From contig JAMDCK010000019.1 of the NCBI GenBank assembly GCA_023488435.1, positions 50,967 through 114,966 on the forward strand: a DNA stretch of 64,000 bases. Direction: 5' to 3'. The stretch is from Actinomycetota bacterium. GTDB taxonomy: Bacteria > Actinomycetota > Coriobacteriia > Anaerosomatales > UBA912. Both the position numbers and the translations under genes were made by a program. Below, piece after piece: positions 23,530 to 46,875 of this stretch (position 1 is the stretch's first letter; every line of letters starts with the position of its first letter). The notes below the pieces were generated by a model. That model ran no database searches. It saw only the letters and a program-made list of their open reading frames with translations, and was not told the origin of the DNA.

Positions 23530-23541
23530 TCATGCACCTCT

Positions 23542-24972: not shown

Positions 24973-24973
24973 T

Positions 24974-26725
24974 TCAGTACACCTCGATTCCGGCGATTTC
25001 TTCGGCCAACTGTTCCGCATAACCCGGTAGGCTCTGGATGGCCTCCTCATGAGGGGTGGTCTTCATCCCGGCTATTCGATCGCGGATGGGAGTCTCCAGA
25101 AGCTGCCTTAGCGACACTCCTCTGTTTAGCGCTGCAACGGCAGAATCGTAGAAAGCCAAGATCACCTTCAGCATCACGTACGCCTTTTTAGGCGGACAGT
25201 ATGCATCGATATCATCGAAAGCGAACTGCTGAAGAAAATCCTCACGCAGCATTCTGGCTACTTCGAGGATGACTTTCTCCGATTCCGGCAATGCATCCGG
25301 GCCGACAAGCTGTACGATCTCTTGCAGCTCGGTCTCCTTCTGAAGTATGAACATCGCGCGATCGCGTAAGTCCTGCCAATCCGGCGCAACATTCTCCTCA
25401 TACCAGCCGCGGATCTGACTGCCGTAAAGGGTGTATGACTTCGTCCACGATATAGCCGGGAAGTGCCTTCTATGCGCCAGTGAGGTGTCCAAGGCCCAGA
25501 ACGCTCCAGTAACCCTTAGAGAGTTCTGTGTCATTGGCTCAGACATATCTCCACCTGCTGGGGATACCGCTCCCACCATCGTGACTGAGCCTATGCGCTC
25601 ATCAGACCCAAGGGTCTGGACTCTTCCCGAGCGCTCATAGAATGAAGCGAGTCTTGTGGCAAGGTAGGCAGGGTATCCTTCCTCCCCGGGCATCTCCTCG
25701 AGACGTCCCGAGACTTCTCGAAGTGCCTCGCCCCACCTTGAGGTCGAGTCTGCCATCATGGCCACGTTGTATCCCATATCGCGATAGTACTCCGAGAGAG
25801 TGGCACCGACATAGATGGACGCCTCGCGGGCCGCAACCGGCATGTTAGATGTGTTGGCCACAAGCACGGTGCGTTCCATCAACGGTGCACCGGTTCCCGG
25901 GTCTTCAAGCTCGGGAAACTCTACGAGGACTTCTGTCATCTCGTTTCCTCGCTCACCGCATCCAACATAGATGATGATGTCGACTTCCGCCCACTTGGCA
26001 AGAGATTGCTGGGTGACCGTCTTTCCAGTACCGAACCCTCCTGGGATGATCGCGTTCCCTCCCAGTGCGACCGGAAAGAACGTATCCAATATCCGCATAC
26101 CCGTCGTGAATGGATGGGTTGGGTCGAGCTTACGAACGTATGGGCGCCCTTGGCGAACGGGCCACCACTGACTCATCTTGATCTCGAAGCCATCCTCAAG
26201 CTTCGCCATGACTTGGTCTACCGTATACGAACCTTTCTCGGCAACTGTGGCCACCTTTCCAGAGACTCCCGGCGGAATCATGACCTTATGCGTTATAGTC
26301 TCGCCCTCGGGAATCGTGCCTACCACATCCCCAGGTCCTACCGACTGTCCGGGCTGCATCACAGGCGTGAAGTCCCACAGACGCTCGTGGTCGAGGGCTG
26401 CAGCCACGGTTCCGCGCTCAATGAACTCGCCCGATTGCTCGGCGATCAGCGGCAAAGGTCGCTGTACTCCATCGTAGATGGAGGTCAGGAGCCCAGGACC
26501 CAACTCGATCATCAATGGTCCTGCCGTGGACTCCGTGATATCCCCGACCGTCAACCCTGAAGTGTCCTCGTATACCTGAATGGTCGCCAAATCCCCCTCT
26601 AGACGGATTATCTCGCCCATCAGCCCTTCTCGACCGACCCGGACTATGTCATACATCCGCGCGCCACGCATGTCTTGCGCAACGACCACCGGTCCTGTGA
26701 TCTTCGATATCTTTCCGACTATCAT
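24974..26725 (-). CDS. atpA: V/A-type ATP synthase catalytic subunit A
   Basis: Walker [40 protein letters not shown]. 583 aa. Confidence 0.97.
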
Positions 26726-27057
26726 CAGCCTCGCCTCAAAGTTATGTCGAATCCAATAGCTCTACGTATCAGTCTCGCAAGGTACGCTCTGTGGTCATCT
26801 CCAACTTCGAGCTTCTCTTTAATAGGCAGCGATATCACAATCGGACGATAGATGGAGTCGATTCGACGTTGTGTTCGCTCGTCTATCCCCGCCATAAGGC
26901 GCTCGTTCACGGCTATGATTCCGCTGTCCTCGTCGTCAATCAGGCTGTTTAGATGGACGCGGGTCATCTCTGCCGAATCGACTACCACCGTGTCGACGCC
27001 AGAGAGCCTGAACCCGTCTGCTGTGCTCGTATCGGTGAGCACTGTTAGCTTATACAA
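26725..27057 (-). CDS. atpF: V/A-type ATP synthase subunit F
   Basis: 110 aa. [22 protein letters not shown]. Its position between C and A is typical. Confidence 0.8.
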
Positions 27058-28147
27058 GTATCAGCTCCTTTCTGATCCGGTCGAGCGGCATGCCGACTTC
27101 CTTGCCTTTCACAATAATCCGAATATTGGTTACCTCGTTCTGCTTGGCCCACAGATAGGCTATTGCAACGCCTGCCCCCAGCGGGTCTCCTCGGCCTAGC
27201 TTCACGACGCGTCGAACAAACGCTTGCTCCAGCGCTCTTTCGAATACGGAGATGCTGTTCTGTTCTAGGTATGCCATGACTACGTCATCGAGTATCCTGC
27301 CGTACGATATCTTTTTCAGCCTCTCTAACACCTCATCCACATCTGACTTGGCAGCTAGATCCATATACAGCGCACGATCCACCTCGATACCACCGGGCAG
27401 AAAATACGATTCCACGTCTTCGACATCGATGTCGGCCTGAAGGAGCCTCAGTGCCATCACAAGATTGGAGACGTCCATTTGAGCGCCGAGGACTGCTCGT
27501 CCGATTTGAATGTTCTTTCCCCGCTTATTCAGTCGCTGTGTCGCCCATGACGCATAGTACTGGTCGAGAGACAACTCCATGCCGAGGAGCTCTCCAGTCT
27601 GAACATAGCTGGCGAAACCGTCCCTGAGAGGGCTGGCGAACGGCAGGCCCCATGTAGCAACTGTGTCCACAAGCGCTTTCACGTCTTCAAGTCGCGCAAG
27701 TCCATCAATGTCATGAACGCTCAGTGTGCCAACCGGCAGTACTCCTGCGCCCAGACTCTCTGCCTCCAACCCGAGGTGCCTGGCCCTCAAAAGAGATTTG
27801 AGATTGAACACATCCCATCTGCCAAGCAAGGTCGAGACGATATGACCGGCCTCCGGGTTCAAGAAGCCGGTCACTTTGCCGTATGTCCGCACCATACTGT
27901 TTCGCAAGGCCCCATCGATGTTTGCGGCGCTGATGCCCTTTATCAACACTTCCTCAATGGAGGATGCGTACTCCGATTCCAACAGACTCTGAACCAGATC
28001 CTTGGTACTTGATGCCTCCAAAAGCTGCTCGAAGAAGGAGTGGTGCAGCATCCGCGAGCGCATTCCTCTTATCCGAGCATTTGCATATCCGTAGTCGCTG
28101 CCGCTGGATGGGCTGATGGATCGTACCGAAGCAGGGCTCTTGTTCAT
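27050..28147 (-). CDS. atpC: V/A-type ATP synthase subunit C (V0 d-like)
   Basis: 365-aa all-helical protein (YGYANARIRGMRSRML is a typical N-terminus). Overlaps both E and F. Confidence 0.85.
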   Translation of the reverse strand: MNKSPASVRSISPSSGSDYGYANARIRGMRSRMLHHSFFEQLLEASSTKDLVQSLLESEYASSIEEVLIKGISAANIDGALRNSMVRTYGKVTGFLNPEAGHIVSTLLGRWDVFNLKSLLRARHLGLEAESLGAGVLPVGTLSVHDIDGLARLEDVKALVDTVATWGLPFASPLRDGFASYVQTGELLGMELSLDQYYASWATQRLNKRGKNIQIGRAVLGAQMDVSNLVMALRLLQADIDVEDVESYFLPGGIEVDRALYMDLAAKSDVDEVLERLKKISYGRILDDVVMAYLEQNSISVFERALEQAFVRRVVKLGRGDPLGAGVAIAYLWAKQNEVTNIRIIVKGKEVGMPLDRIRKELILV

Positions 28148-28722
28148 GAGAACAAGATCTCCGCTACATCAGATTTGATATAGGGGATTGCCTTTTCCAA
28201 ACGATCCTCGATTGTGTTCCGTCTGACAATCCGCCCATCGGCGTAACTGACCACCACTCCGCCCATAGTCGAAATCTCTGCACGGACCGACCCTTGAGCA
28301 CCGATATCCGCCAGTGTCTTGAGCGCAAGTTCCTCATCTGCTGGATCAACCAGGACTTCTGGGGGCTCGCTCATGTCAGTCACCGCTTCCTCCAGCAGCG
28401 CACGAAACAATTCCGGATACCCATCAGCCCGCCTTATTTCGGACAGTTTTTCTCGAGAGGAGCTAAAAACCCTGGTTACTATCTCCTCTTTGACTGACCC
28501 CATTCGCTTTTGCGCATCAAGCCTCACGACATTGACACGCCTAGCAGAGTCCTCCTGTCCTGATGTCTGCGCGCTCAATAAGCATCCGTTACGAATAGCT
28601 TCGGCCTCGTCAGCTGCATCAGCCGCAATCGAACTGGCTTGCACACGCGCAGCTTCAAGAAGCGCAGCACACTCATCTTCGGCCTGCTCGTCCAGTGCGC
28701 GGAAGATATCCTCAAGGGCCAT
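28144..28722 (-). CDS. atpE: V/A-type ATP synthase subunit E (peripheral stalk)
   Basis: 192 aa with an N-terminal long helix and a C-terminal globular domain (GGVVVSYADGRIVRRNTIEDRL). Confidence 0.85.
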   Translation of the reverse strand: MALEDIFRALDEQAEDECAALLEAARVQASSIAADAADEAEAIRNGCLLSAQTSGQEDSARRVNVVRLDAQKRMGSVKEEIVTRVFSSSREKLSEIRRADGYPELFRALLEEAVTDMSEPPEVLVDPADEELALKTLADIGAQGSVRAEISTMGGVVVSYADGRIVRRNTIEDRLEKAIPYIKSDVAEILFS

Positions 28723-28771
28723 GTACGATAACCTCGATCCTTCGAATGTAGGAGCCGACTATCCCCTCGGA

Positions 28772-29110
28772 CTACCTTGATGGAGGCGGTGTGACAGGCA
28801 TACCGATTATCATGATCGCCGCGACAAACCCGAGGAGCACGATGACCTCCGGGAGAGCCTGCAGGACTACGACCCATACGGCCGCTTCGGGCCTCTCGGC
28901 GAGCGTACCTGCGGCAGCCGTACCAATCTTTGCCTGAGCGTATCCTGCGGCCATCGCAGAGAAGCTCATTGCAACGGCGGCGGCAATCGCCTTCGCGATA
29001 TAAGCAGATGCCTCGCCGCCCGGATCGACGGCGTAAGCCATCGCCGGGAACGCCATCGCCAAAAGAAACGCTGTGCCTGCAATTGTCTTCCCCAGTCGAT
29101 TCTTGATCAT
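28772..29110 (-). CDS. atpK: V/A-type ATP synthase proteolipid subunit K/L (c-ring)
   Basis: 112 aa. A signal-like N-terminal helix precedes one hairpin with a GxGxGxG-like helix (AAGYAQAKIGTAAAG) and the carboxylate helix LQALPEVIVLLGFVAAIM. Confidence 0.85.
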   Translation of the reverse strand: MIKNRLGKTIAGTAFLLAMAFPAMAYAVDPGGEASAYIAKAIAAAVAMSFSAMAAGYAQAKIGTAAAGTLAERPEAAVWVVVLQALPEVIVLLGFVAAIMIIGMPVTPPPSR

Positions 29111-31137
29111 GCGCTCTTTCCTCCTCCAACTTTGGTAAACGGACTGTACGGTTGCTTTCCTGTCTCGTAAAACGTGCCGAAGAACTCCAGCAAGTTTAGA
29201 CGCAAGGCATGGATCAAAGGGACGAATGCGGCAATCACTATCTTCAGTGAGTGCAATATCACCCCAAGTATGATTGCGGCCACCGGATGGCCCATCGCCA
29301 TCATCAACTCATTGACAGCATTGGCGAACATTGCGCCGCCCAAGCCAACGGCCATGATCCTTATGTAGCTGGCCATGTGTGAGACCGCTAGAAGGACTTC
29401 GACCGCACCCATCAATCCGCCGCCACGCACGGCGTAATACGCGCCGCCCAGAGATATGAGGCCGATTGCGACTTGTAGCCACATCTGCCCAGTTTCACCG
29501 ACGGTGTCGGAAATAATCGTAAGTTGGCTGATCAGCACAATCACGAGCACCCCTAAAAAGGTGACGAGCAGTCCTCCCTTTTCGTACAAGTGCTTCTTGT
29601 GCTTGGTCTTGACTGCATTGATGACTCCGAGAGTGAATCCGAGCAGTATGTGAACCACCCCAGCAAGCACTGCCATCCACATGTAGGCAACAATGTGTTC
29701 CGGGCGATAGAAGACCGGCACCATCCCGAACCAGTAAAATATCTTTTGCCCAGTCTCCGCATACAGTTGTGCGTCATACGTGAGCCATCCCAGGAGCTTA
29801 GGTACATTCCCGAAACCCTCTCCGTACGCAAGCCCGAACGCGATACTCATAGTTGCGGCTGGGCCCAAGATGGCCGTAGCGACCTGCACCAGTTCGATTT
29901 CACGGAACTTGAATCTCAGCCATATGACAACGGCAAGGATTATTGATCCGTATCCGAAATCGCCGACTATCATCCCGTAGAATAAGGGGAAGAAAATGAA
30001 CAAGAGCCATGTCGGATCCACAGTTCCGTACTTCGGAACACCTCTCACGTTCATCAGCGTGGAGTACGGCGCAACCCGATCCGGATTCTTAAGCGATACT
30101 GGGGTCTCTTCATACATGTCCTCTTTGATCTCAGTTGTTGAGACGATGACCTCGAGCCCCCATCGGCTCACTATCGTCCGTCTGAGTTCCTCGAAGTCAG
30201 CCACGGGAACCCAACCGCTAATCACAAATGTATACTCGGTACATCCGAACTTCGGGATGACCCCGACCTCGTCAATCTTATCGATGAGGACGTCCCGTAT
30301 GGCAAGAAGCCTCAGTTCCCACTCGATCGACATCTCCGCAAGCTCATCAATGATTTTCTGAAGCTCCGCAGGGAGCTCCTTTCGCTTGGCCCTCAGCTCT
30401 TCATACGCGACATCGAAGGGAACGTCTTGGAACTCACTAGGTAGTCGAATCTGATTGACGTTCTCCACGGCAAGAAACTTGTGGACCGGCTCAGAAAAGG
30501 TTCTGCTGAAAACTACAATCGCAGCTGTGGTGTCCTGATCGACGTCAGTAGAGACAATCTCGCATTGCTTATTTGTGATTTTGTCCAACTCATCTTTGAG
30601 CTGCTCTAGTGCGCCTTTGTACCGACTCTCAATCAGCAGCGCCACCGACTCGTATGCCCCGGTGGTAACAATCTGCTTGGCTAAGGGCTGGATCTTCTCG
30701 AGTATTGGTTCATAGCGAGCCAACTGGGCGATCTCGCTTTCGATAGCCGCCTGATCGGCGGCCAACGTCGCGGTCCGCTCTTCCACTTCTCCAACAACAT
30801 CAGCTATTTCCTGTGCGAGTTGCGCCGTATTGAGGCAGTAGAGGCGATCGTACTCGCGCAGTCGGGCTTCCTGGTCCATGGGAGCTTTTTCTTTGTGAAG
30901 AACCCCGAGTATCGCGCGAACCCGAATCAGAAGTTCATCCATTTGGTCTTGATCGACCCTTTGGTCCTTGACGATCTCCATGCTTTCGAGCGGCACATCC
31001 CCCGATTGAATCTTTGCGGACAGATCTTCGATATGAAGAGAGCCGTCCTCGTGCAGCATGCTGATGACTTCCTGGAAGAGATTCTTGGGGCCGATGATCT
31101 CGACTTTAGTCATTGGGACTAACATTTCACAACACAC
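29107..31137 (-). CDS. atpI: V/A-type ATP synthase subunit I (a-subunit, stator/proton channel)
   Basis: 676 aa. N-terminal cytoplasmic coiled-coil half and a polytopic C-terminal half with the conserved ASYIRIMAVGL Arg helix. The start may be MLVPMTKVEIIG. Confidence 0.9.
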   Translation of the reverse strand: MCCEMLVPMTKVEIIGPKNLFQEVISMLHEDGSLHIEDLSAKIQSGDVPLESMEIVKDQRVDQDQMDELLIRVRAILGVLHKEKAPMDQEARLREYDRLYCLNTAQLAQEIADVVGEVEERTATLAADQAAIESEIAQLARYEPILEKIQPLAKQIVTTGAYESVALLIESRYKGALEQLKDELDKITNKQCEIVSTDVDQDTTAAIVVFSRTFSEPVHKFLAVENVNQIRLPSEFQDVPFDVAYEELRAKRKELPAELQKIIDELAEMSIEWELRLLAIRDVLIDKIDEVGVIPKFGCTEYTFVISGWVPVADFEELRRTIVSRWGLEVIVSTTEIKEDMYEETPVSLKNPDRVAPYSTLMNVRGVPKYGTVDPTWLLFIFFPLFYGMIVGDFGYGSIILAVVIWLRFKFREIELVQVATAILGPAATMSIAFGLAYGEGFGNVPKLLGWLTYDAQLYAETGQKIFYWFGMVPVFYRPEHIVAYMWMAVLAGVVHILLGFTLGVINAVKTKHKKHLYEKGGLLVTFLGVLVIVLISQLTIISDTVGETGQMWLQVAIGLISLGGAYYAVRGGGLMGAVEVLLAVSHMASYIRIMAVGLGGAMFANAVNELMMAMGHPVAAIILGVILHSLKIVIAAFVPLIHALRLNLLEFFGTFYETGKQPYSPFTKVGGGKSA

Positions 31138-34888: not shown

Positions 34889-35479
34889 CTAACGTTCAGG
34901 CCCAGACTCCTCCAGCGCTCCCTCTACCGTTGTTTCTTCCCCTTCGCCACCCTGCTGCAACTCATCGAGCAGACTTCTGGCATCCTTGAAGGAGGCAGCG
35001 AATCGAGCTTCGGCGCTCTCGGGCTCGGCCGGAGGCCTGGGGCGGTTCGCAGCCGTGATCGCAACTGCCGAGGCAACCGCAGTCTGGTGCGTGAACGACA
35101 GCGATAGGTGAAGCTCCACCACTCCGGCCTGCTCGGCCACTTCGGCAGCTCTGCCGTGCAGGACTGGCCGAGGGCGCCCGCCGCCGTCCCTGAGGACCTC
35201 GACGTCAACGAAGCGCATGCCGGAAAACCCGGTACCGATCGCCTTGAGGACTGCCTCCTTGGCGGCGAATCGCATCGCGTAGTGCACCTCCGGGCGGTTG
35301 CGCTTCTCACAATAGTCGCGCTCCTGCTGAGAGAATATGCGGGTCTTCATCTTAGGGTGACGCTGGAGCGCGAGCCGCATGCGCTCGATCTCCACAATGT
35401 CGACGCCCAGGCCACGGATCACCGAATCGCTGCGGGCTATCGCCTCGCTGCAAACTTGAGGGCTGTCATCCATCGTCAC
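34889..35479 (-). CDS. acpS: Holo-[acyl-carrier-protein] synthase AcpS with an extended acidic C-terminal tail
   Basis: GLGVDIVEIERM, FAAKEAVLKA, LSLSFTH. About 60 extra C-terminal residues follow the core. The ATG at 35479 overlaps the glmS stop. A later GTG (VIRGLGVD) is possible. Confidence 0.8.
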   Translation of the reverse strand: MTMDDSPQVCSEAIARSDSVIRGLGVDIVEIERMRLALQRHPKMKTRIFSQQERDYCEKRNRPEVHYAMRFAAKEAVLKAIGTGFSGMRFVDVEVLRDGGGRPRPVLHGRAAEVAEQAGVVELHLSLSFTHQTAVASAVAITAANRPRPPAEPESAEARFAASFKDARSLLDELQQGGEGEETTVEGALEESGPER

Positions 35480-37299
35480 TCGACCGTGACGGACTTGGCG
35501 AGGTTACGGGGCTGATCGACATCGCACCCACGCAGCTTGGCGATTCTGTACGACAGCAGCTGCAAAGGAATCGTCGCCGGAATCGCCGAAAGAGCCTCAG
35601 ACGTCGCCGGAACCTTTAGAACATGCTCAGCATGGTGCGCAATCTGGTTGTCCCCATGGGTCGCAACCACGATGACGTCGGCGCCTCTGGCCCTGACCTC
35701 CTCGATGTTGCTGACGACCTTCTCGTAAGTCTCGCTCTGGGTAGCCACCACGACCACCGGTAGCTCTTTGCAGATCAGCGCGATCGGGCCGTGCTTCATC
35801 TCGCCGGCAGCATACGCTTCGGCATGTATGTAGCTGATCTCCTTGAGCTTGAGCGCACCCTCCATGGCCACTGCGACACCGACTCCCCTTCCCAGGAACA
35901 GCGCTGAGTTGACGTCGGTGTAGGACGCCGCGCACTCTTCGACTTCGTCGGCATCGGCTAAGATCGCCTCGACGATCTCCGGCATGTTGGAGAGCTCTGC
36001 CCACAGAGACTCTACGCGCTCCTGGGGCAAAGAGCCTTTGACCTGCGCGAGCTTTAGGGCCAGGACTGTCAGTGCTGCAATCTGAGCCGTGAACGTCTTT
36101 GTCGCTGCGACTCCGATCTCGGGACCGGCGTGGGTGTAGAGGATTCCGTCGGCTTCGCGCGTGATCCGTGAGCCCACGACGTTTGTGATGGCGATGACCT
36201 TCGCGCCCCTTTCGCGAGCCTCGCGCACTCCCGCCAGTGTATCCGCGGTCTCGCCGGACTGGGTGATCGCCACGACGAGTGTCTGATCATCCACGATTGG
36301 GTCGCCATATCGGAACTCGCTGGAGACCTGCACTTCGACGGAGATGCGCGCCCACTTCTCAATGAGCGATTTTGCTACCATCCCGGCGTGATAGCTGGTG
36401 CCGCAAGCAAGGATGACTATTCTGTCGATAGCGACGATCTGCTCGACGGTCATGTTCAGCTCCGAGAGCTGGATCTGGCCATCGCGCATGCGCCCACTGA
36501 GTGTCGCGCGTATCGCTTTCGGTTGCTCGTATATCTCCTTGAGCATGAAATCCTCGAAGCCGCCCTTCTCGGCAGCCTCCAGATCCCACTCCACATGCAG
36601 CATCTCGGGCTCGACGATCTTCCCATCAGCGTCTGTCACGACGACCGCATCCCTAGTCACCGTGGCTACCTGCCCGTCGGCTAGCGCCACAACGTCGCGA
36701 GTGTATGCGAGCAGGACGCAGATATCGCTTGCCACGATGTTCTCGTCCTCGCCCAAGCCGATGACAAGCGGCGAGTCTTTTCGGGCGGCAACGATGGTAT
36801 CCGGCGAGTCTAGGTGCACGACTCCGAGAGCATATGCGCCATGCAGGCGCGCGATTGCCCTGCGGACCGCCCTAGCCAGATCGCCATCGAAGTATGCCTC
36901 AACCAGATGAGCGACGACCTCTGTGTCGGTCTCGCTTCGGATGATGTGCCCGTTCTGAGCGAGCTCCTCCCGAAGCTCGAGATAGTTCTCGATGATCCCG
37001 TTGTGCACCACAGCGATACGTCCGGTGCAATCCACGTGGGGATGAGCGTTCTCCTCGCTGGGCTTTCCGTGAGTCGCCCATCGCGTGTGCCCAATGCCGA
37101 TGTGCCCTCCCACCGGCCTCTCATCGAGTGCGTCCTTCAAGTTGACAAGCTTGCCGACCCTTCGGACGACATCGATCGAACCGTTTTCCATCACGGCGAC
37201 TCCCGCCGAGTCATACCCGCGATACTCCAGTCGAGCCAACCCGCCGAGAAGGACCTCCGTGGCCGACTTCGTCCCTGTATAGCCTACGATTCCGCACAT
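35476..37299 (-). CDS. glmS: Glutamine--fructose-6-phosphate aminotransferase
   Basis: MCGIVGY (Ntn Cys), two SIS domains, C-terminal NLAKSVTVE. Confidence 0.98.
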   Translation of the reverse strand: MCGIVGYTGTKSATEVLLGGLARLEYRGYDSAGVAVMENGSIDVVRRVGKLVNLKDALDERPVGGHIGIGHTRWATHGKPSEENAHPHVDCTGRIAVVHNGIIENYLELREELAQNGHIIRSETDTEVVAHLVEAYFDGDLARAVRRAIARLHGAYALGVVHLDSPDTIVAARKDSPLVIGLGEDENIVASDICVLLAYTRDVVALADGQVATVTRDAVVVTDADGKIVEPEMLHVEWDLEAAEKGGFEDFMLKEIYEQPKAIRATLSGRMRDGQIQLSELNMTVEQIVAIDRIVILACGTSYHAGMVAKSLIEKWARISVEVQVSSEFRYGDPIVDDQTLVVAITQSGETADTLAGVREARERGAKVIAITNVVGSRITREADGILYTHAGPEIGVAATKTFTAQIAALTVLALKLAQVKGSLPQERVESLWAELSNMPEIVEAILADADEVEECAASYTDVNSALFLGRGVGVAVAMEGALKLKEISYIHAEAYAAGEMKHGPIALICKELPVVVVATQSETYEKVVSNIEEVRARGADVIVVATHGDNQIAHHAEHVLKVPATSEALSAIPATIPLQLLSYRIAKLRGCDVDQPRNLAKSVTVE

Positions 37300-37399: not shown

Positions 37400-37549
37400 G
37401 CTCATGATTTCCGGATCGCCCACGCATTGTCTCTGCGGTCACCCGCAGCCTTTGTCGGTGACGTATCGACCCCGGTAGGCCGGAGAGCCATCCGCCGATT
37501 GATCGATAAGCTCTCTCCTCGTCGACTGGGAAAGCCAGTCCAGGCGCTT
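37400..37549 (-). ncRNA. glmS ribozyme (GlcN6P-dependent self-cleaving cis-regulatory RNA)
   Basis: The minus strand reads A-GCGCCTGGACTGGC...GACGAGGAGAGAGCTTATCGATCAATCGGCGGATGGCTCTCCGGC...GGGTGACC...GAAATCATGA. The Bacillus/Thermoanaerobacter core is AGCGCCAGAACUGGC...GACGAGGAUGGAGGUUAUCGAAUUUUCGGCGGAUGCCUCCCGGC...GGGUGAC...AAAUCACAUGA. It lies about 100 nt upstream of the glmS ATG. The ends are approximate. Confidence 0.85.
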
Positions 37550-37622
37550 CGTTCTATCCAAGTCCTACCGCATAGGCACTCCCTTCAGTGACGAGAATTG
37601 TGCAATGTATACGAGCCTTTGC

Positions 37623-39900: not shown

Positions 39901-39908
<8 letters not shown>

Positions 39909-40347
39909 CGACGTGGTCCTCCAGGTTTATCGATCGCGGCCCCTGTGCAACATGAGGATGCTCTGGGCCTGCGTATACTTTGAGCTTCTTCATCATGGCT
40001 CTGCCAAGAGTGTTCTTGGGCAGCATGCCCTTGACCGCGCGTGTGATGACGCGATCTGGATGGCGCTCCAGCATTCGGGAGATCGGAGTCTCTTTGAGAC
40101 CGCCATTGTACCCACTGTGCCGATAGGCCATCTTGGTAGCCATCTTATTACCGGTCAATCGGATCTTCTCAGCGTTGATGACGACAACGAAGTCACCGGT
40201 ATCGACGTGAGGTGTGTACTGAGGCTTGTTCTTGCCCTTCAGGATTTGAGCCACCCTGCTAGCAAGACGACCCAGCACCATGTCGTTCGCGTCAACGAGC
40301 AGCCATTCGCGCTCGACTTCGCCTGGTTTCGCATGGTAGGTCTTCAC
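39901..40347 (-). CDS. rplM: 50S ribosomal protein L13
   Basis: [20 protein letters not shown]...[21 protein letters not shown] start. Confidence 0.97.
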
Positions 40348-40418
40348 TTATCCTCCAACTTCAAAAATGATCTAGTACTGTTCGAATGAGTTTTCACGGG
40401 GCACAAACGAACCCTTAG

Positions 40419-40447
40419 ACTATAGCCATCGGGCACCGTTGAGTCAA
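40419..40447 (-). promoter_or_regulatory. rplM-rpsI(-glmM) promoter
   Basis: The minus strand reads TTGACT, a 17-nt spacer, then TATAGT. Lies about 70 nt upstream of the rplM start. Confidence 0.55.
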
Positions 40448-40481
40448 TAACAGTTAAGCACGGCGAGGCAGTGCGGTTTGG

Positions 40482-42464
40482 TTATTGTGACGCCCTTGCC
40501 TTCTTGGCGTAATCGGCTGCCGCTTGTGCCTGAACAATGGCCCTGTTCATCGAGACTAGAAAGCCGCTGGGGTTGTGGAACCCCTTACTGTTCTCCGAAA
40601 CCGCCAGATTCTCCCAGAGCACATGTGCTGTCTGGTAATTGCTTACCGCTTCTCTTAGATAGGAATTGTCGTCAGGAACGCCAGCGTTCTTGGCCGTCCA
40701 TATCTCCCTCAAGGCGATCACCAGGGCATCTTGTGCCCAGAGTCCAAGGGTGTAGGATTCATCCTGGATGCGATGAACCGCATTGATCATCCGTGTCGGC
40801 TCCCCCGCCTCAAGATGACAAGTTCCGCAGGGCTCGATAACCCCATTCGGCAACGAGATCTGCGCCTGCTCCGCAAACCTTTCGGCTGGCCCGGGGGTCA
40901 TATATTTTATCGGGGAGGCCATCCAGTGCGATGTGAACGTACGCCTCCGAGGTCCTGTGAGCTGGTCGTCGGGTACTTCGGCGGGGTTAAGTTTCACCCT
41001 AGGCATGTGACAGGCATTGCAGCTGGTAGCGTTGGCGTAGTGACGGCTCTGCCAGTAGAACTCAACCTCAGGATGTTGGCTCTTTATCAATCTCTCACCG
41101 ATGGGATATAGCGCCCCCTCAGGGAAGTATCCAGGCTTTGCCCGATCGTCGCTTTGCCAAGGCTGCGGCCCAATGCCGTGACGGAAGTCTTGAGCATAGT
41201 TGAATCTGGCTCTGAAGTCCGCCTCGAGGTCGAACTCCTTGCGCCAAGGAAAGTAGTCTCGGATAGTTGTGTCAATGGGACTGAACCCACACACATACTC
41301 CACGTGGCACTGAGCGCAAAGCAAGATGTTGCGATCGTAGACGCTCAATGCAGGATCGTCCATGCTTCGTATTTCGGCTTTAGCCGGATCGTATGGATTG
41401 ACTCCACGTTCGGATACCGCGCTAATGAGAGCCTGCCGAATGATCCTGAACTGAGTGTCGTGAGGATTATGGCACTGATTGCATGTGATCCCACCAGGAA
41501 TGGTGGGCGAACCTTCTGGTAGTTCGTCGACAACCAAGGCGTAAGTAGCCGCCCAAAGCATTTTTCTAGCCTCAGGAGACTGTCTTCCGTTGTTTTCGGC
41601 GGCAACGCCTGTCGCGTTATACGACGCGTACTGAACGCCATCCGGCAGAGTAACGCGCACCTTTACTTCGTAGTTCGGCAGACCGGTCTCGGGGTGTGGC
41701 GTTTCTTGGTCAGTGGATAGGTAAACCTCGGTGCCTGCCGGAATGGTGATGACCTGGCCGGGTGCAAAGTGTCCGGACTGGACCTTGACCTCGTTTTGAA
41801 CAGTTCTTGTTATACCGCTGTTCCAGTAGTAGACAACCTCGGTCGCTTTACACTGGAGGCAATTCTCGAACTTGCCTCGGCTGATGTTGTAGTGATCCAG
41901 AAGTGCGACACTGTGACTCCTGTCTTCATTGTACTCAGTGACAAACCCATGACCGTGCAACAGCGTGTTGTAATACTCCCAATCCATGGTCTTGGCCCGC
42001 AAGGCGCCGACATCGCCAATAGCCTCGTCAACGGGCTGGGCCCCTGGTGCCAGGGGCTCCTGTGGGCCCGGGGATCCCCCGTACCTTGTCCGGAAGGAAT
42101 CGCCGTAGCTAAAGGTCGTGTATTGATCCACGTGACATTGACCACACTGTTCCCGAGCGAACACCACAGCAACCCTAGCTTCCGGGTTCTCAGGGTCTGC
42201 CGCGTGGTCTAGGGCTCCTGCATGGCAAACCTGGCAGGAAAGAGTCGCATCTGGATCGAAATCAGGGATCAGCCGCTCTCCCCAGTACTGAATGTCAACA
42301 TGTGGGCCTGCCAGCACGGCGTCGACCTGCTCGCCATGGCAGCCACTACCGCCGCATGCGACTCGTTCTGGGGCCTGTTCGCCCACACCCGTCAACGCAA
42401 ATACTAGCAGTGCCGCTGCCCCCGCCAAGAGCACTAGGATCACCGCAACCAGTTTGCCTTTCAC
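40482..42464 (-). CDS. Membrane-anchored octahaem c-type cytochrome of the NrfA / octahaem nitrite reductase family (CXXCK active-site haem)
   Basis: Haem motifs in order are CGGSGCH (CX4CH), CQVCH, CGQCH, CLQCK, CNQCH, CAQCH, CNACH and CGTCH. NrfA-like signatures are EDRSH, LLCAQCHVEY, SQHPEVEFYWQSRHYANATSCNACHMP, and a C-terminal helix with ENSKGFHNP. N-terminal TM anchor. GTG start with GAGAGGG upstream. Confidence 0.8.
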   Translation of the reverse strand: MKGKLVAVILVLLAGAAALLVFALTGVGEQAPERVACGGSGCHGEQVDAVLAGPHVDIQYWGERLIPDFDPDATLSCQVCHAGALDHAADPENPEARVAVVFAREQCGQCHVDQYTTFSYGDSFRTRYGGSPGPQEPLAPGAQPVDEAIGDVGALRAKTMDWEYYNTLLHGHGFVTEYNEDRSHSVALLDHYNISRGKFENCLQCKATEVVYYWNSGITRTVQNEVKVQSGHFAPGQVITIPAGTEVYLSTDQETPHPETGLPNYEVKVRVTLPDGVQYASYNATGVAAENNGRQSPEARKMLWAATYALVVDELPEGSPTIPGGITCNQCHNPHDTQFRIIRQALISAVSERGVNPYDPAKAEIRSMDDPALSVYDRNILLCAQCHVEYVCGFSPIDTTIRDYFPWRKEFDLEADFRARFNYAQDFRHGIGPQPWQSDDRAKPGYFPEGALYPIGERLIKSQHPEVEFYWQSRHYANATSCNACHMPRVKLNPAEVPDDQLTGPRRRTFTSHWMASPIKYMTPGPAERFAEQAQISLPNGVIEPCGTCHLEAGEPTRMINAVHRIQDESYTLGLWAQDALVIALREIWTAKNAGVPDDNSYLREAVSNYQTAHVLWENLAVSENSKGFHNPSGFLVSMNRAIVQAQAAADYAKKARASQ

Positions 42465-42484
42465 GTTGATCGCCCTCTCTCTGC

Positions 42485-43675
42485 CTATACTTCCGGGGCC
42501 CTAATGTTCAGTAGCTTCACTCCAATGGTGATGATCAACGCTCCGACAGCCCAAAGGCCCACGCCCACCAAAACCTCTTGAAAGGTGGGGGCGTAGGATG
42601 TCAACTCTCCCATCGCGGACACCCCTAAGCCTTTGACGAGCAAGATGAATCTCTTTATGAACACACCTATCACCAGAAGCAGCGAGGCGAGAGCGATCAC
42701 TGGTATCGACTTACGGATCTTAGGGATAACCAGAAGGACGAAGGGCAGCAAGCCGAACAAAAACACTTGCGATAGAAATAGCGGTGCGTACTTTCCTGTC
42801 AGCAGCAAGCTATACATTTCCACGTAGGAGGGCTTGCCCGCACCTGGCCAAAGAGCAGTCATCATTTCAGCAAGCAGGAAGAAAAGGTCAACGAGTACCA
42901 CAACAGCCAGCAGCTTTCCCATTTTGAAGAATATCTCGTCCTTGAATCTCGTGCCGGTGAACTTCGACACGAGCAGACTGATGAGAATAAGTAATGCGAG
43001 GCCAGAAACAACAGCCGATGAAACAAACAGAGGCGCCATCAGTGCTGTGTTCCAGAGCTCCTCGCCCCTGACAAAGCCGAGCACCCAGGCTGTGATTGAG
43101 TGCATCGAGATCGCGGCTGTCAGAGAAACGATGGCCATCCCCAGAAGAAACCTGGGAGAACCCTTCCCCGTGTGAGACAGCCACAGAGCAATAGCGCAAA
43201 TTGCTAGATAGGAGTTCAAGATAATGAAGTCAAAAACGAAGATGGAGCTGAAGTTCGGACTCAAGAGAAACCAAAAAACCCTCTCGGGACGACCCAAATC
43301 AATCAGTACGAAGAGCGCTGCCAACAGCGTGCACACCAAGGCTTGAAGAACTGCCAGTTTGGATAACGGCTTGAACTCCCGGGCGTCAAAGATATACACG
43401 CTCGCATAAACCACGAGTCCACCGGCGGCTAATCCTACAAAGAACATGAAGTTCTGGATATAGAACCCCCATGGAAACCCGTCTCTCAAGCCGGTGACGA
43501 CAAGGCCTCGGGCGAGTGGTGTTTGGAAATAATAGGCATAGACCCCGAGGCCTATCAGCAGCACAAGAGTCGTCACCCAACCATAAAACACAAAGGTAGG
43601 ACCGTTTTTCTTAGGGGCCATACTTCCTCCCGAGGCATCTTTCGTCTCTAGATACTCCGCGTTGTCATTTTGCAT
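42485..43675 (-). CDS. NrfD/PsrC-family polytopic membrane quinol-interacting subunit
   Basis: 396-aa, very hydrophobic, multi-helix protein. It lies directly downstream of the NrfC-like FeS protein, the architecture typical of NrfD/PsrC/DsrP/ActC. Confidence 0.75.
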   Translation of the reverse strand: MQNDNAEYLETKDASGGSMAPKKNGPTFVFYGWVTTLVLLIGLGVYAYYFQTPLARGLVVTGLRDGFPWGFYIQNFMFFVGLAAGGLVVYASVYIFDAREFKPLSKLAVLQALVCTLLAALFVLIDLGRPERVFWFLLSPNFSSIFVFDFIILNSYLAICAIALWLSHTGKGSPRFLLGMAIVSLTAAISMHSITAWVLGFVRGEELWNTALMAPLFVSSAVVSGLALLILISLLVSKFTGTRFKDEIFFKMGKLLAVVVLVDLFFLLAEMMTALWPGAGKPSYVEMYSLLLTGKYAPLFLSQVFLFGLLPFVLLVIPKIRKSIPVIALASLLLVIGVFIKRFILLVKGLGVSAMGELTSYAPTFQEVLVGVGLWAVGALIITIGVKLLNIRAPEV

Positions 43676-43681
43676 CTAGGC

Positions 43682-44488
43682 TCACCCTAAATAGTAGAAG
43701 CGAGGATCGGCACCTTGCTCTTCCTTCAAGCGGAAAGCTCGTCTGGTGATAATCAACTTGGATACAGCACTCTCCGGATCGTTCATGTCGCCGAAGAATC
43801 GTGCAGCCGTTGGGCAGGCCTCCACACAAGCTGGAGTCCGCCCAATCCTGACGCGGTGAATGCAGAATGTGCACTTCTCGGCAACGCCCACGGGGCGCTT
43901 CGGAACTTCTAGATTGAGTTCGCCTTCGGGTACTTCCGGCTTTTTCCAGTTGAATCGGCGGGCGCCGTAAGGGCAAGCGACCACGCAGTATCTACATCCT
44001 ATGCACTTGTCATAGTCGATAACCGTGATGCCGTCGGGATCCTTCCATGTAGCCGTCACAGGACATACTTTGACGCACGGCGGGCTTTCGCACTGCATGC
44101 AGGCAACCGGCAGATACCACCGATCGGGTAGCGGCGCCTTCGTGTAGAGAGAGTCAGTGTTCTTGAGACTGATCGTACCCCTCTTGAGACTTTGGACCCT
44201 GATCCACTCCATATTTGATGACCTGGGGATGTTGTTGGTCTTGACGCACGCATAGACACACCTTCGGCAACCAACACAAGCCTTAGTGTTCAATGCCATC
44301 GCGAACCTAACGTCGGTCTTGAGCGGAGGAGGAGCGTAGCTGACGCTTGGTCCCTGCGCCAAGTTGCTCTTGGACTCCACAGAGGCCAAAACCCTCATGC
44401 CTCCCACATAGCCACCCAAAGTAAAGGCGCCAGCCACCATTCCCGTCTTGATCAAAAAGTCGCGTCGATCGATCGATTCGTCTTTCAT
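43682..44488 (-). CDS. Tat-exported 4x[4Fe-4S] ferredoxin subunit (NrfC/PsrB/DsrO-like)
   Basis: Twin-arginine leader MKDESIDRRDFLIKTGMVAGA. Four cluster motifs are CVGCRRCVYAC, CMQCESPPCVKVCP, CIGCRYCVVACP and CTFC...CVEACP. Confidence 0.85.
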   Translation of the reverse strand: MKDESIDRRDFLIKTGMVAGAFTLGGYVGGMRVLASVESKSNLAQGPSVSYAPPPLKTDVRFAMALNTKACVGCRRCVYACVKTNNIPRSSNMEWIRVQSLKRGTISLKNTDSLYTKAPLPDRWYLPVACMQCESPPCVKVCPVTATWKDPDGITVIDYDKCIGCRYCVVACPYGARRFNWKKPEVPEGELNLEVPKRPVGVAEKCTFCIHRVRIGRTPACVEACPTAARFFGDMNDPESAVSKLIITRRAFRLKEEQGADPRFYYLG

Positions 44489-44490
44489 GA

Positions 44491-45120
44491 CTACCGCCGC
44501 CCTTTGTTCGATTTGGCTGACATTCCCACCACTATGGAAATGCCTACTAGTCCGCCACTTAGCAGAAAGACAAGGATTGCCACAATCTCCAACTCAGGCA
44601 AGGAGGGCGAAGGCGGATCATCCGCTGGGGGAGGCAACGGCGTGAAGGGCTCTGCATAAGGGCCCACTCTGAAGGAAATAGGCTCGTCGAGAAATGGAGG
44701 CAAGGGGGCGACCTTGAACCGTCCGGGCCTGTGAGGGCTGTGGCAGGTGATGCAGCTAGCCCTCCCCGGCTTTCCATGAGTTCCTGCCTGCCACTCGTTG
44801 TACTTGTTCGAATGACACCGGTAACAAAGCCGAGGAACGTTCTCTTCGATAAAGGGAACCTGAGAGCCATCGATCAGGATGAAGTAGCTGGCCTCTCCTA
44901 CGACCATATCGTGACATACCTGGCAGGCATCTCGCGTTGGGCTGCCTAGCTTCTCATGACTGTCCAGCTCAATATAATCATGCTGTGAGGCTTGCGCTGC
45001 GCCCGCAAAAACGAACAGTGACAGGATGATTGCTGTGCAGACCGTCGTCAAAAGAGAAAGCCTGCGATGAGGGGCTACATCCCCCACGGAATCGCACACG
45101 CCCCTAGGACTCATAGCCAT
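44491..45120 (-). CDS. Trihaem c-type cytochrome with N-terminal signal/anchor and C-terminal TM helix
   Basis: CQVCH, CYRCH and CITCH. N-terminal hydrophobic segment LSLLTTVCTAIILSLFVFAGAAQA. A Pro-rich linker precedes the C-terminal helix EIVAILVFLLSGGLVGISIVVG. I chose the ATG at 45120; the 104 upstream codons of the track ORF look non-coding. Confidence 0.7.
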   Translation of the reverse strand: MAMSPRGVCDSVGDVAPHRRLSLLTTVCTAIILSLFVFAGAAQASQHDYIELDSHEKLGSPTRDACQVCHDMVVGEASYFILIDGSQVPFIEENVPRLCYRCHSNKYNEWQAGTHGKPGRASCITCHSPHRPGRFKVAPLPPFLDEPISFRVGPYAEPFTPLPPPADDPPSPSLPELEIVAILVFLLSGGLVGISIVVGMSAKSNKGRR

Positions 45121-45233
45121 CTTCCTTTCGCCGACGCATCCTTTGCGTACATCGTGCCTGTAGGGCGACTTCGGCTCGTACTTGCGGAATCCTTCCGGTT
45201 TGGTACTTTTTCTGACTATACCCGAGCGGACAG

Positions 45234-45251
45234 CGAAATATGTGTATTTCG
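45234..45251. promoter_or_regulatory. Perfect 7-4-7 inverted repeat (candidate operator) upstream of the cytochrome cluster
   Basis: CGAAATA-TGTG-TATTTCG. It lies about 14 nt upstream, on the minus strand, of a TATAGT -10-like hexamer (45215-45220), so it overlaps the -35 position. No good -35 hexamer is present. Confidence 0.3.
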
Positions 45252-45277
45252 TAGAGATAGTATGTAGGAAATTCAGT

Positions 45278-46081
45278 CTACACTTGATCGACCCAGCAGC
45301 TCTCTGGATAGGTGACGTTCCACAATGTGAGCCCATGGGATGGAGCAGTCGGGCCCGCAGCCCGCCGAATCTTCGCGGACAGTGCATCGGCGAGCCAGCT
45401 AGGTTCACGCTTGCCAATCCCCACCTCAACAAGACTGCCTACCACGACGCGGACCATTGAATGGAGGAATGCATCGCCGATCACGCGGACAGTCACACAC
45501 TCCTCGCCCAACAAGGTGTGTCGGTCCACATCCACGACCTCCAAAGCCCGAACGGTACTTTTACCCTCGGCGGAGCGCGCCACACAAAACGATGCGAAAT
45601 CATGCTCGCCGATCAGAATGACTCCGCCTTCCTGCATCGCCTCCAAGTCGAGAGGCTTTCTGACCCACCAAGCGTACCGGGACATGAACACCGGTGGTGT
45701 CGCACCAGTTGCTAAGCGGTAGCGATACTCTCGGCTGGAGGCATCGAACCTCGCCGAGAAGTCTGGAGCGGTACGCCGGGCCCCCTTAATGGCGATCCCT
45801 TTACTCGCGCACAGCGCATTGAGTGAGCGCACAAGGCTGTCCAGATCGGGCAACACGTCGTCGGCCTCGAAGCTCACCACCTGTGCACGCGCATGGACTC
45901 CTGTGTCGGTTCGACCTGCCCCAGTCGTACGTATCTCAGTCCGCAAGACAGTCGCCAGAGCGGATTCCAGTGTGCCCTGGACGGTCGACAGGCCCTCCTG
46001 GCGCGCGAAGCCGTGGAAGCCGGAGCCATCGTATGAGACCGTCAATGCGATGCCCTCGCCCATCTTCTCCCTCATCATCAT
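45278..46081 (-). CDS. truA: tRNA pseudouridine(38-40) synthase TruA
   Basis: IALTVSYDGSGFHGFARQ, GAGRTDTGVHA (catalytic Asp). The ATG at 46081 overlaps the ecfT stop (ATGA). Confidence 0.93.
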   Translation of the reverse strand: MMMREKMGEGIALTVSYDGSGFHGFARQEGLSTVQGTLESALATVLRTEIRTTGAGRTDTGVHARAQVVSFEADDVLPDLDSLVRSLNALCASKGIAIKGARRTAPDFSARFDASSREYRYRLATGATPPVFMSRYAWWVRKPLDLEAMQEGGVILIGEHDFASFCVARSAEGKSTVRALEVVDVDRHTLLGEECVTVRVIGDAFLHSMVRVVVGSLVEVGIGKREPSWLADALSAKIRRAAGPTAPSHGLTLWNVTYPESCWVDQV

Positions 46082-46875
46082 AACGTCACGGCGATGACGG
46101 CGAATGCGAGGCATGCCCCCAGCAACACCGAGATGTCGATCTTGGTCATACTACTCTGATGTAATCTGGTTCGGCCATAGCCTCCCACGTAGCACCTGGC
46201 CTCCATGGCTATCGCTAATGCCTCGGCCCGCTTGAACAGATTGACGAAGAGCGGGATCAGAATCGGGATGTATGCCCTGGCCCGAGATATCGGCCATCGT
46301 TGATCGAACCTAGCGCCCCTGGCGATCTGGGCGACCATGATCTTCTCGGCCTCCTCGGCCATTGTCGGGATGAAGCGAAGCGCGATTGTGAGCATCATCG
46401 CGATGTCGCCCACAGGGATCCTCAGGCGTTCGAGTGGACGCATGATCCTGGTGAGTCCGTCGGTGATCTCAACAGGTGAGCTGGTCAGTGTGAGCAACGT
46501 ACTTCCCAGGACAAGGATCACTATCCTCGCCGAAAAGAAGAGCCCCTGCAACAGCCCCCCCTGGTCGATGGCTAGGGGGCCGAGTCTGAGCAGGGCGACC
46601 GTGGCGGGCTCCCATCGAAGCGCGTGGGCAAGCAGCGTGAAGGAGAGCAACAACGTCACAGCTTTGAGGCCACGGGTCACAAGGTGGAGCGGAACCCTTG
46701 ACAGCGCGATGACGACCAACAGCATGCTCGCAATGACGCCTAGGCCCGTGAATCCTTCGATTGTGAAGAGCGTGATGCCCATCCCGGCCATCAGCCCCAT
46801 CTTGGTTCTGGGATCCAGCACATGTATCGGGGAATCGATGGGAACATACTGACCGAATGGAACTGGAGCCCTCAT
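46078..46875 (-). CDS. ecfT: Energy-coupling factor transporter transmembrane component EcfT
   Basis: Polytopic protein with the conserved coupling-helix motifs (AQIARGARF ... EALAIAMEARC). Overlaps ecfA2. Confidence 0.9.
   Translation of the reverse strand: MRAPVPFGQYVPIDSPIHVLDPRTKMGLMAGMGITLFTIEGFTGLGVIASMLLVVIALSRVPLHLVTRGLKAVTLLLSFTLLAHALRWEPATVALLRLGPLAIDQGGLLQGLFFSARIVILVLGSTLLTLTSSPVEITDGLTRIMRPLERLRIPVGDIAMMLTIALRFIPTMAEEAEKIMVAQIARGARFDQRWPISRARAYIPILIPLFVNLFKRAEALAIAMEARCYVGGYGRTRLHQSSMTKIDISVLLGACLAFAVIAVTL

Follow-up and report, generated by a model that had tools for sequence, protein, structure and literature searches.

An octahaem nitrite reductase gene joined to a cytochrome/FeS/NrfD-family module at the truA-rplM junction of an Actinomycetota bacterium

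What does a compact set of respiratory genes do when it stands between two housekeeping genes of an actinobacterium, from where would it draw electrons, and to which acceptor would it pass them? Such a set is found in a stretch of 64,000 nucleotides (hereafter the window, from whose first letter all positions are counted) of contig JAMDCK010000019.1, positions 50,967 to 114,966, from an Actinomycetota bacterium (Coriobacteriia; Anaerosomatales; assembly GCA_023488435.1). On the minus strand of the window, four co-directional open reading frames (ORFs) of 209, 268, 396 and 660 codons, here called genes 1 to 4, occupy positions 40482-45120 and are flanked by truA (45278-46114) and rplM (39901-40347). 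An earlier sequence-only reading of this DNA had proposed a quinol:acceptor oxidoreductase; the four frames lie where it placed them, and its two flanking genes are confirmed both by ORFs and by metagenome gene calls.

Here we describe the evidence for what we hold to be the likely answer, namely that the four genes encode a membrane-bound menaquinol:nitrite oxidoreductase, which, in a monoderm actinobacterium, would form ammonium at the outside of the cytoplasmic membrane. The combination of subunits is new, and the families to which they belong are known.

The octahaem protein

On the evidence of its sequence and of its predicted fold, gene 4 (40482-42464, minus strand) is a member of the known family of octahaem cytochrome c nitrite reductases (ONR), of the TvNiR/TaNiR type, and not a pentahaem NrfA. 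The assignment is made because the haem order, the catalytic and calcium-site residues and the best sequence and fold matches all fit published ONR features. Seven CXXC[HK] motifs are present, CLQCK (residue 202) among them, plus one CX4CH (CGGSGCH, residue 37), so that the earlier count of eight haem motifs including CLQCK stands, although it requires the non-canonical CX4CH. The sites start at residues 37, 77, 107, 202, 328, 383, 482 and 546, in the order 3 + CXXCK + 4, and the ONR family has been defined by eight sites arranged as three CXXCH, one CXXCK and four CXXCH (PMC10716430). A first site of the CX4CH form also occurs in many homologues of the Gram-positive type, among which several have lipoprotein signals.

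The similarity to the NrfA family on which the earlier reading depended is significant at the superfamily level (Pfam Cytochrom_C552, 1.9e-37). The best sequence matches among PDB structures are TvNiR of Thioalkalivibrio (4e-24) and then TaNiR of Trichlorobacter ammonificans (8e-22), and all pentahaem NrfA structures score behind them. For the AlphaFold model (pLDDT 91.4), ranks 1-8 in Foldseek are taken by TvNiR, TpNiR and TaNiR (E 2e-17 to 2e-16), followed by NrfA at 1e-13 or weaker, with OcwA far behind at 0.02; one of the top matches, PDB entry 8rv0, bears the title of Trichlorobacter ammonificans octahaem nitrite reductase in complex with nitrite. Two other identities were tried and rejected: pentahaem NrfA, with 57 bits for NF008339 (cut-off 595), 44.8 bits for TIGR03152 (cut-off 692.5) and eight haems in the protein, and the MccA/SirA, OTR or HAO types, given that no CX11-17CH motif is present (MccA has a CX15CH site) and that neither the 50 listed Foldseek matches nor the PDB sequence search includes any of these structures. 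Those homologues that have a name at NCBI are called either 'ammonia-forming cytochrome c nitrite reductase subunit c552' or 'hypothetical protein'.

Judged from its residues, the active site of gene 4 is that of a nitrite ammonifier. Aligned with TvNiR, R196 corresponds to the Arg within VVDRA, which is the catalytic Arg of that enzyme; CAQCHVEYVCG corresponds to CAQCHVEYNCN, which holds its catalytic Tyr and the partner Cys; and KSQH corresponds to KLQH, the segment with the Ca ligand and the catalytic His, a residue that in gene 4 (H464) lies between haem sites 6 and 7. R196, K206, E389, Y390, C392, K461, Q463 and H464 are invariant in an alignment of 66 homologues, and all the full-length sequences among the 120 listed homologues present three haems, CXXCK and four further haems, together with EY-x-C and K-x-Q-H. 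The Cys two residues past the catalytic Tyr may, as predicted from these motifs, be positioned for a Tyr-Cys link of the kind described for ONR (PMC12285233). With an active site of the nitrite-ammonifier type, the acceptor is less open than the sequence-only reading held in stating that it could not be read from the sequence.

Gene 4 has in common with TvNiR of Thioalkalivibrio nitratireducens (PDB 2ot4, 3rkh) and with TaNiR (PDB 8rv0) the 3 + CXXCK + 4 order, the catalytic Arg, Tyr and His, the Cys, and the Glu/Lys/Gln pattern of the Ca site. It differs from them in an identity of about 20%, which is its level of identity to characterised ONRs, in its first haem site and in two further traits. 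After the catalytic CLQCK comes a beta-rich insert of about 85 aa (residues ~215-295), which is found in the family consensus and not in the TvNiR alignment. The N-terminus, in turn, is a single long hydrophobic helix, and it is uncertain whether this is an anchor or a cleaved signal peptide, a tethering of the octahaem protein being plausible.

The trihaem, Fe-S and membrane subunits

Gene 1 (44491-45120, minus strand) encodes a small trihaem cytochrome c, with CXXCH motifs at residues 66, 99 and 123. Motif and hydropathy analysis agree with the earlier description of an N-terminal hydrophobic segment (21-39, followed by AQA and then S) and a C-terminal transmembrane (TM) helix (179-197, followed by KSNKGRR); the chain begins with a signal peptide or anchor, continues in a linker rich in Pro and ends in a TM anchor. 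Of the claim that both cytochromes are membrane-tethered, the part that concerns gene 1 is upheld by this anchor, whereas for gene 4, whose lone helix could be cleaved, it is left uncertain. No curated family is reached: the best NCBIfam match is NrfH TIGR03153 at 24.9 bits (cut-off 134). The identities DsrJ, NrfB and NrfH were all rejected, in view of the three haems, of an NrfH score far below its cut-off and of the lack of a DsrJ match even at E <= 10. The kin of gene 1 form a small family of cytochromes with three to four haems, a Pro-rich linker and a C-terminal anchor. It is a rare one, with 37 representatives at E <= 1e-10 among 1.84 billion in a full HMMER scan; a word-indexed search gave only three homologues, and the family came into view only by way of genes next to gene 3 homologues, a scan of metagenomes and the full HMMER scan. 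At NCBI the gene 1 product (MCL4554581.1 / MCL5887154.1), from an 'Actinobacteria/Actinomycetota bacterium' metagenome-assembled genome (MAG), is named 'NapC/NirT family cytochrome c'.

Gene 2 (43682-44488, minus strand; 268 aa) is predicted from its sequence to be a Tat-exported subunit with four [4Fe-4S] clusters, of the DsrO/PsrB/ActB-C-terminal type. It has the twin-arginine motif DRRDFLIK and 16 Cys in four ferredoxin-type groups (CX2CX2CX3C, CX2CX4CX3C, CX2CX2CX3C and CX2CX11CX3C), a motif count in agreement with the RRDFL leader and the four [4Fe-4S]-type clusters of the earlier reading. Pfam Fer4_11 matches at 1.5e-20; among the NCBIfam models DsrO just passes, with 208.4 bits for a cut-off of 200, and NrfC (TIGR03149) fails, with 133 bits for a cut-off of 378. 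The best PDB matches are ArrB, PsrB and ActB.

Gene 3 (42485-43675, minus strand) is, according to sequence and model comparisons, a ten-helix quinol-interacting subunit of the NrfD family, within the ActC/DsrP/QrcD subgroup, for which quinone binding is predicted. Pfam NrfD (PF03916) matches at 1.3e-44 and 153.6 bits (cut-off 25.8), so that the three Pfam families that the earlier reading had named, Fer4_11 for gene 2, NrfD for gene 3 and Cytochrom_C552 for gene 4, are all found; the best NCBIfam match, DsrP, reaches 202.7 bits, under its cut-off of 350. The hydropathy profile has ten hydrophobic peaks, across which the AlphaFold model (pLDDT 88.8) is helical. All PDB sequence matches are ActC subunits of Alternative complex III (ACIII), and in Foldseek the model has TM-scores of 0.81-0.83 to ACIII ActC versus 0.51 to the 8-helix PsrC. 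What had been described as a protein in the NrfD/PsrC position is indeed polytopic and of the NrfD family, but of the ten-helix ActC/DsrP type and not of the 8-helix one. Residue D126 is invariant and S144 nearly so, at a separation of 18 residues, which is also the spacing of the quinone-site Asp and Ser listed for DsrP and QrcD (PMC8076601). The protein has two Cys and no redox cofactor motifs.

Several known systems resemble this set in part. The NrfABCD system of E. coli follows the same logic, in that it brings together a quinol subunit of the NrfD family, an Fe-S subunit of four clusters, a small mediator with several haems and a nitrite reductase with a CXXCK haem (PMC12285233). In the present set, however, an octahaem ONR stands for the pentahaem NrfA and an anchored trihaem mediator for the soluble pentahaem NrfB, gene 2 fails the NrfC cut-off, gene 3 is ActC-like with ten peaks and unlike the 8-helix NrfD, and the gene order is different. 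Donor systems of the NrfBCD and NrfH kinds were rejected on the NrfC and NrfH scores given above, the ActC-like gene 3 and the lack of a pentahaem protein. The earlier conclusion that the oxidoreductase fits neither canonical Nrf layout is thus borne out: there is no NrfB and no NrfH, and the NrfC, NrfH and NrfA models stay far below their cut-offs.

The order of trihaem cytochrome, Fe-S protein and ten-helix NrfD-family protein is also that of DsrJOP in DsrMKJOP (PMC8076601). This likeness, already pointed out from the sequence alone, is sustained by DsrO, whose cut-off gene 2 passes, and by DsrP as the best NCBIfam match of gene 3, but it goes no further: gene 3 has 203 bits where 350 are needed, gene 1 has no DsrJ match and is C-terminally anchored, and the terminal partner is a nitrite reductase. 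DsrMKJOP itself was rejected on the missed DsrP cut-off and the missing DsrJ match; dsrMK does not flank the operon, and dsrMK, dsrAB and dsrC were not found in the annotated parts of the window, where annotation covers about half of the length by Pfam and ~22 kb more by precomputed gene calls, with ~52.5-64 kb (~11 kb) outside. ACIII (ActABCDEF), for its part, has the ActC fold of gene 3, an Fe-S part of ActB that gene 2 resembles and an outer-side c-type cytochrome, but its acceptor is a soluble cytochrome c or an oxidase and not an attached reductase. It was rejected as an identity, the operon being without a molybdopterin-like ActB domain, ActD, ActE, ActF, a pentahaem ActA and a second NrfD-like gene.

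By being encoded with a dedicated FeS/NrfD-family/trihaem module, gene 4 also departs from the retrieved published contexts of ONR, which has been linked to nap genes in Geobacterales (PMC11972089) and lies beside a Rieske/cytochrome b complex in Nitrospira (PMC6606698). Literature searches, which did not take in the main T. ammonificans ONR paper, turned up no published ONR with an NrfD-family module. A four-gene unit of similar parts, likened here by description only, is that of Thermosulfurimonas dismutans TDIS_0606-0609 and Dissulfuribacter DBT_2326-2329, which comprises a TM multihaem cytochrome c, an NrfD-family protein, a periplasmic 4Fe-4S protein and a TM cytochrome c, and for which nitrite reduction has been proposed (PMC5276818); its large cytochrome is listed as a Hao homologue and not as a CXXCK ONR, and its hosts are diderm Thermodesulfobacteriota/Desulfobacterota. 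Together with the Nitrospira arrangement, this locus provides precedents for a quinol-linked octahaem N-oxide reductase.

The identity of the partners bears on a first alternative, according to which the same complex would have another main substrate (sulfite, hydroxylamine, NO or another N or S oxyanion) and serve detoxification or sulfur respiration, with nitrite as a side activity. The partner subunits do score best against DsrO and DsrP, models from sulfur metabolism, but the dsrAB, dsrC and dsrMK genes that would go with them were not found in the annotated parts of the window; nitrate and nitrite genes were not found there either, a point in favour of the alternative, whereas elsewhere gene 4 homologues have nap genes, or a transporter and a molybdoenzyme, as neighbours. 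TvNiR takes hydroxylamine and sulfite besides nitrite (PMC8840924), and yet gene 4 conserves the nitrite-ammonifying ONR/NrfA pocket in all its catalytic and Ca-site residues, with no MccA, OTR or HAO-type structures among its listed fold matches. Altogether we regard another main substrate as improbable and retain nitrite as the preferred one.

The operon, its insertion and its relatives

For two of the genes a shorter frame is likely: starts at 45114 for gene 1 (207 aa) and at 43621 for gene 3 (378 aa) are favoured by Shine-Dalgarno spacing and by independent gene calls on identical metagenome contigs. With these starts the intergenic gaps are 2, 60 and 20 nt, versus 2, 6 and 20 nt with the longest ORFs; the genes are tightly spaced, as had been claimed, but the claimed range of 2-20 nt is exceeded before gene 3. 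No terminator-like sites above shuffled-sequence level were found between the four genes, nor a terminator-like hairpin after gene 4 on the minus strand.

The spacer between truA and gene 1 (45121-45277, minus strand) is a candidate promoter/operator region. It contains a -10-like TATAGT at 45215-45220, in a block identical in a relative whose ONR is 92% identical, and, 13 nt upstream of it, a perfect 18-bp palindrome, CGAAATACACATATTTCG (45234-45251, minus strand). In the same relative only four of seven arm positions of the palindrome are kept, and no known regulator motif was recognised in it; given this partial conservation in the single available relative, no regulator is claimed. A consensus scan upstream of gene 1 gave no full sigma-70 match, so that the promoter-like region which the sequence-only reading assigned to the cluster comes down to the -10-like hexamer and is a weak one.

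By comparison of sequences, the four-gene unit is an insertion at the truA-rplM junction. Among species-representative genomes, the RplM proteins most like that of the window reach no more than 72-80% identity; they come from uncultured Coriobacteriaceae, from an Actinomycetota MAG, from 'Bacterium D16-34' and from Coriobacteriaceae bacterium EMTCatB1. Three of the four genomes closest by RplM have truA in the fetched stretch, and in all three ecfT, truA and rplM are contiguous, with a truA-rplM gap of 137-184 nt. The spacer between gene 4 and rplM (40348-40481, minus strand), which lies outside the island and forms the downstream edge of the insertion, retains the pre-existing signals of rplM: a promoter-like site, TTGACT-17-TATAGT, at 40419-40447, and after it a conserved block, AAGGGTTCG...GCCCCGTGAAA, common to loci L005, L006 and L008 (RplM identity 73-80%), which lack the insert. 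The block 40348-40447 upstream of rplM is, on these grounds, a candidate L13 leader, although no Rfam L13 leader family reaches the gathering threshold there. Since truA and rplM are adjacent in the relatives and the rplM promoter and leader are conserved, the four genes were inserted upstream of the rplM promoter, in keeping with the accessory insertion into a conserved junction that had been suggested.

The three closest truA-bearing genomes are without the unit, and the four-gene combination at this junction was found only in this species and in one other population, the one with the 92%-identical ONR. The exact protein of gene 4 is indexed in 31 metagenome-assembly blocks, with an identical context in the four places shown. 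The contig occurs in identical form in samples such as ERZ27237461, DRR851288 and SRR10267473. As to how the unit arrived, the two flanking spacers have no direct or inverted repeats of at least 9 nt in common, and no mobile-element genes were found in the ~22 kb around the island. The GC3 of the four genes (0.605-0.643) is lower than the mean of the window (0.679, sd 0.068) and yet within its range (z = -0.5 to -1.1), which makes no clear compositional anomaly.

Genes 1 to 3 recur as a module in 19 other loci, 17 of them from metagenomes and two found through gene 3 homologues, and in none of the 19 is there an ONR gene. In the longer loci, the module is followed by cytochromes with 9, 8, 9 and 5 haems, often with a 12-haem one ahead; such clusters are seen in L094 (1157-7317), L095, L100, L104, L105 and L108, and in L094 the first 9-haem protein after the module has a Pfam NapC/NirT (Cytochrom_NNT) match. 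Module and multihaem cytochromes together look like an undescribed electron-export system. At L092 (6462-9158) the same three genes are followed by a TPR protein, with no further cytochromes nearby, on a contig that is apparently archaeal (neighbours with Pfam Ribosomal_L13e, AF_0059 and TrmB).

This recurrence gives substance to a second alternative, in which the operon would be an electron conduit that links the quinone pool with acceptors or donors in the cell wall or outside the cell (such as minerals, electrodes or humics), like the NrfA-related OcwA of the Gram-positive Thermincola. All the other copies of the module do without ONR and, on long enough contigs, usually stand next to 5- to 12-haem cytochromes, but the window operon has no further multihaem cytochromes of this kind. 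Furthermore, for EMTCatB1, one of the RplM-close genomes, 18 c-type cytochromes, nitrite-reduction homologues and a strongly expressed V-type ATPase have been reported, and cathode electron uptake has been proposed (PMC7943316). As a fold match of gene 4, OcwA is detectable and weak, at E = 0.02 versus 1e-17 for ONR. The intact pocket (CXXCK, Arg, Tyr-Cys, His and Ca ligands), conserved under selection in 66 homologues, speaks against a pure wire, which would not need one; we consider a conduit very improbable.

The ONR gene, in turn, is found apart from the module. In the eight loci whose neighbourhoods were examined, no such module is nearby, and the other ONR genes there are solitary or have nap genes or GerE-type regulators as neighbours. 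The closest non-self homologues of gene 4 (55-61% identical) have no adjoining NrfD-family gene; one of them has 355 nt free of ORFs upstream, and a GerE-type regulator precedes two. Among the more distant homologues some stand alone, one follows napGH-napB-napD, and one adjoins an MFS transporter, a molybdopterin oxidoreductase and a Rieske protein. Regulators of the GerE/LuxR type lie beside ONR homologues of several lineages (L112 55-660, L113 309-953, L088 5996-6622, L089 1-414), some with receiver or PAS domains, which hints at a shared regulatory theme. In a neighbour-joining tree gene 4 groups with the 55-61% homologues, outside a lipoprotein-type clade that contains sequences annotated as Coriobacteriia and Anaerosomatales; many ONR homologues of the Coriobacteriaceae-like clade carry a lipobox.

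As ONR and module each occur apart elsewhere, the operon has the look of a fusion specific to this lineage, in which an ONR gene and a cytochrome/FeS/NrfD-family module, two separately circulating units, were recombined. The same facts, an ONR with no module nearby in eight loci and a module that operates elsewhere without ONR, could be taken for adjacency without a common complex, the ONR being fed by another donor and genes 1 to 3 serving an unlinked cytochrome, but with genes that are co-directional and tightly spaced, kept in the same four-gene order in the relative with the 92%-identical ONR and inserted as one block at an otherwise intact junction, and with no other multihaem cytochrome in the window operon for genes 1 to 3 to serve, this has the slimmest chance of all.

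The proposed chain and its setting

Family and domain identities, cofactor motifs, active-site residues, fold matches, operon layout and insertion are direct observations, and they lead us back to the membrane-bound nitrite reductase. For it we infer an order of electron transfer, a physical complex, a menaquinol donor and a role that may be respiratory, detoxifying or assimilatory. Quinol would be oxidised at an outer-side site of the ActC/DsrP-like gene 3, and the electrons would run through the four Fe-S clusters of the exported gene 2, on to the membrane-anchored trihaem gene 1 and from there into the eight-haem chain of gene 4. At its end, the Lys-ligated haem with Arg196, Tyr390 (paired with Cys392), His464 and the Ca2+ site would turn nitrite into ammonium by a six-electron reduction. 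The ammonifying function is supported by the linkage of ONR homologues to napGH/napB/napD, or to an MFS transporter with a molybdopterin oxidoreductase and a Rieske protein.

A number of points weigh against this proposal. Genes for nitrate reductase, a nitrite transporter, cytochrome c maturation and a nitrogen-responsive regulator were not found in the annotated parts of the window, and a dedicated lyase for the CXXCK haem does not adjoin the operon. The first haem site of gene 4 is CX4CH and not CXXCH, and the protein is only ~20% identical to characterised ONRs, enzymes that also reduce hydroxylamine and sulfite in vitro (PMC8840924). Finally, the nearest relatives of genes 1 to 3 sit in the clusters of 5- to 12-haem cytochromes, which resemble systems of extracellular electron transfer and not nitrogen systems.

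NrfH-type systems are electroneutral. For the present operon, a more ambitious version of the nitrite reductase can be considered, because subunits of the ActC/DsrP/QrcD type have been proposed to translocate protons: ammonification would then be coupled directly to the proton-motive force through gene 3. We regard such an energy-conserving nitrite reductase as rather unlikely, if less so than the alternatives above. If true, it would be the first defined physiological pathway from quinol to ONR, and a minimal ACIII-like core set on a terminal reductase.

The setting fits a monoderm actinobacterium. The gene at 12005-13672 (plus strand) encodes an N-acetylmuramoyl-L-alanine amidase (Amidase_3) with three CWB2 cell-wall-binding repeats, and the CWB2 domain is typical of monoderm envelopes; this protein, the Coriobacteriaceae-like closest genomes and the lipobox of the ONR homologues in the clade are the reasons for the assignment. 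The annotated parts of the window hold housekeeping genes, and menaquinone genes were not found among them. A V/A-type ATPase operon (subunits D, B, A ... I) occupies 22885-31137 on the minus strand, and no F-type subunits were seen in the annotated parts. Also on the minus strand, a glmS ribozyme (37407-37559; Rfam RF00234, 91 bits versus a gathering threshold of 37), the only Rfam match in the window, lies immediately upstream of glmS (35476-37299), and a single ORF of 661 aa (18444-20429) joins a RimI-like GNAT acetyltransferase with TsaD, with TsaE just downstream (20743-21252).

Novel here is how the parts are arranged; the parts themselves are known and make no new kind of system, and the interest of the finding is in that sense moderate. 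The structures of ONRs are well characterised, but what supplies them with electrons in the cell is poorly defined. The operon offers a concrete donor chain, which as proposed would lead from quinol through an ActC-like subunit, Fe-S clusters and an anchored trihaem cytochrome to the reductase, in a lineage without an outer membrane. It also illustrates how respiratory modules are recombined, as a cytochrome/FeS/NrfD-family unit that elsewhere stands beside large multihaem clusters is here attached to an enzyme of the nitrogen cycle. Surveys of nitrate ammonification, in turn, gain an actinobacterial ONR clade.

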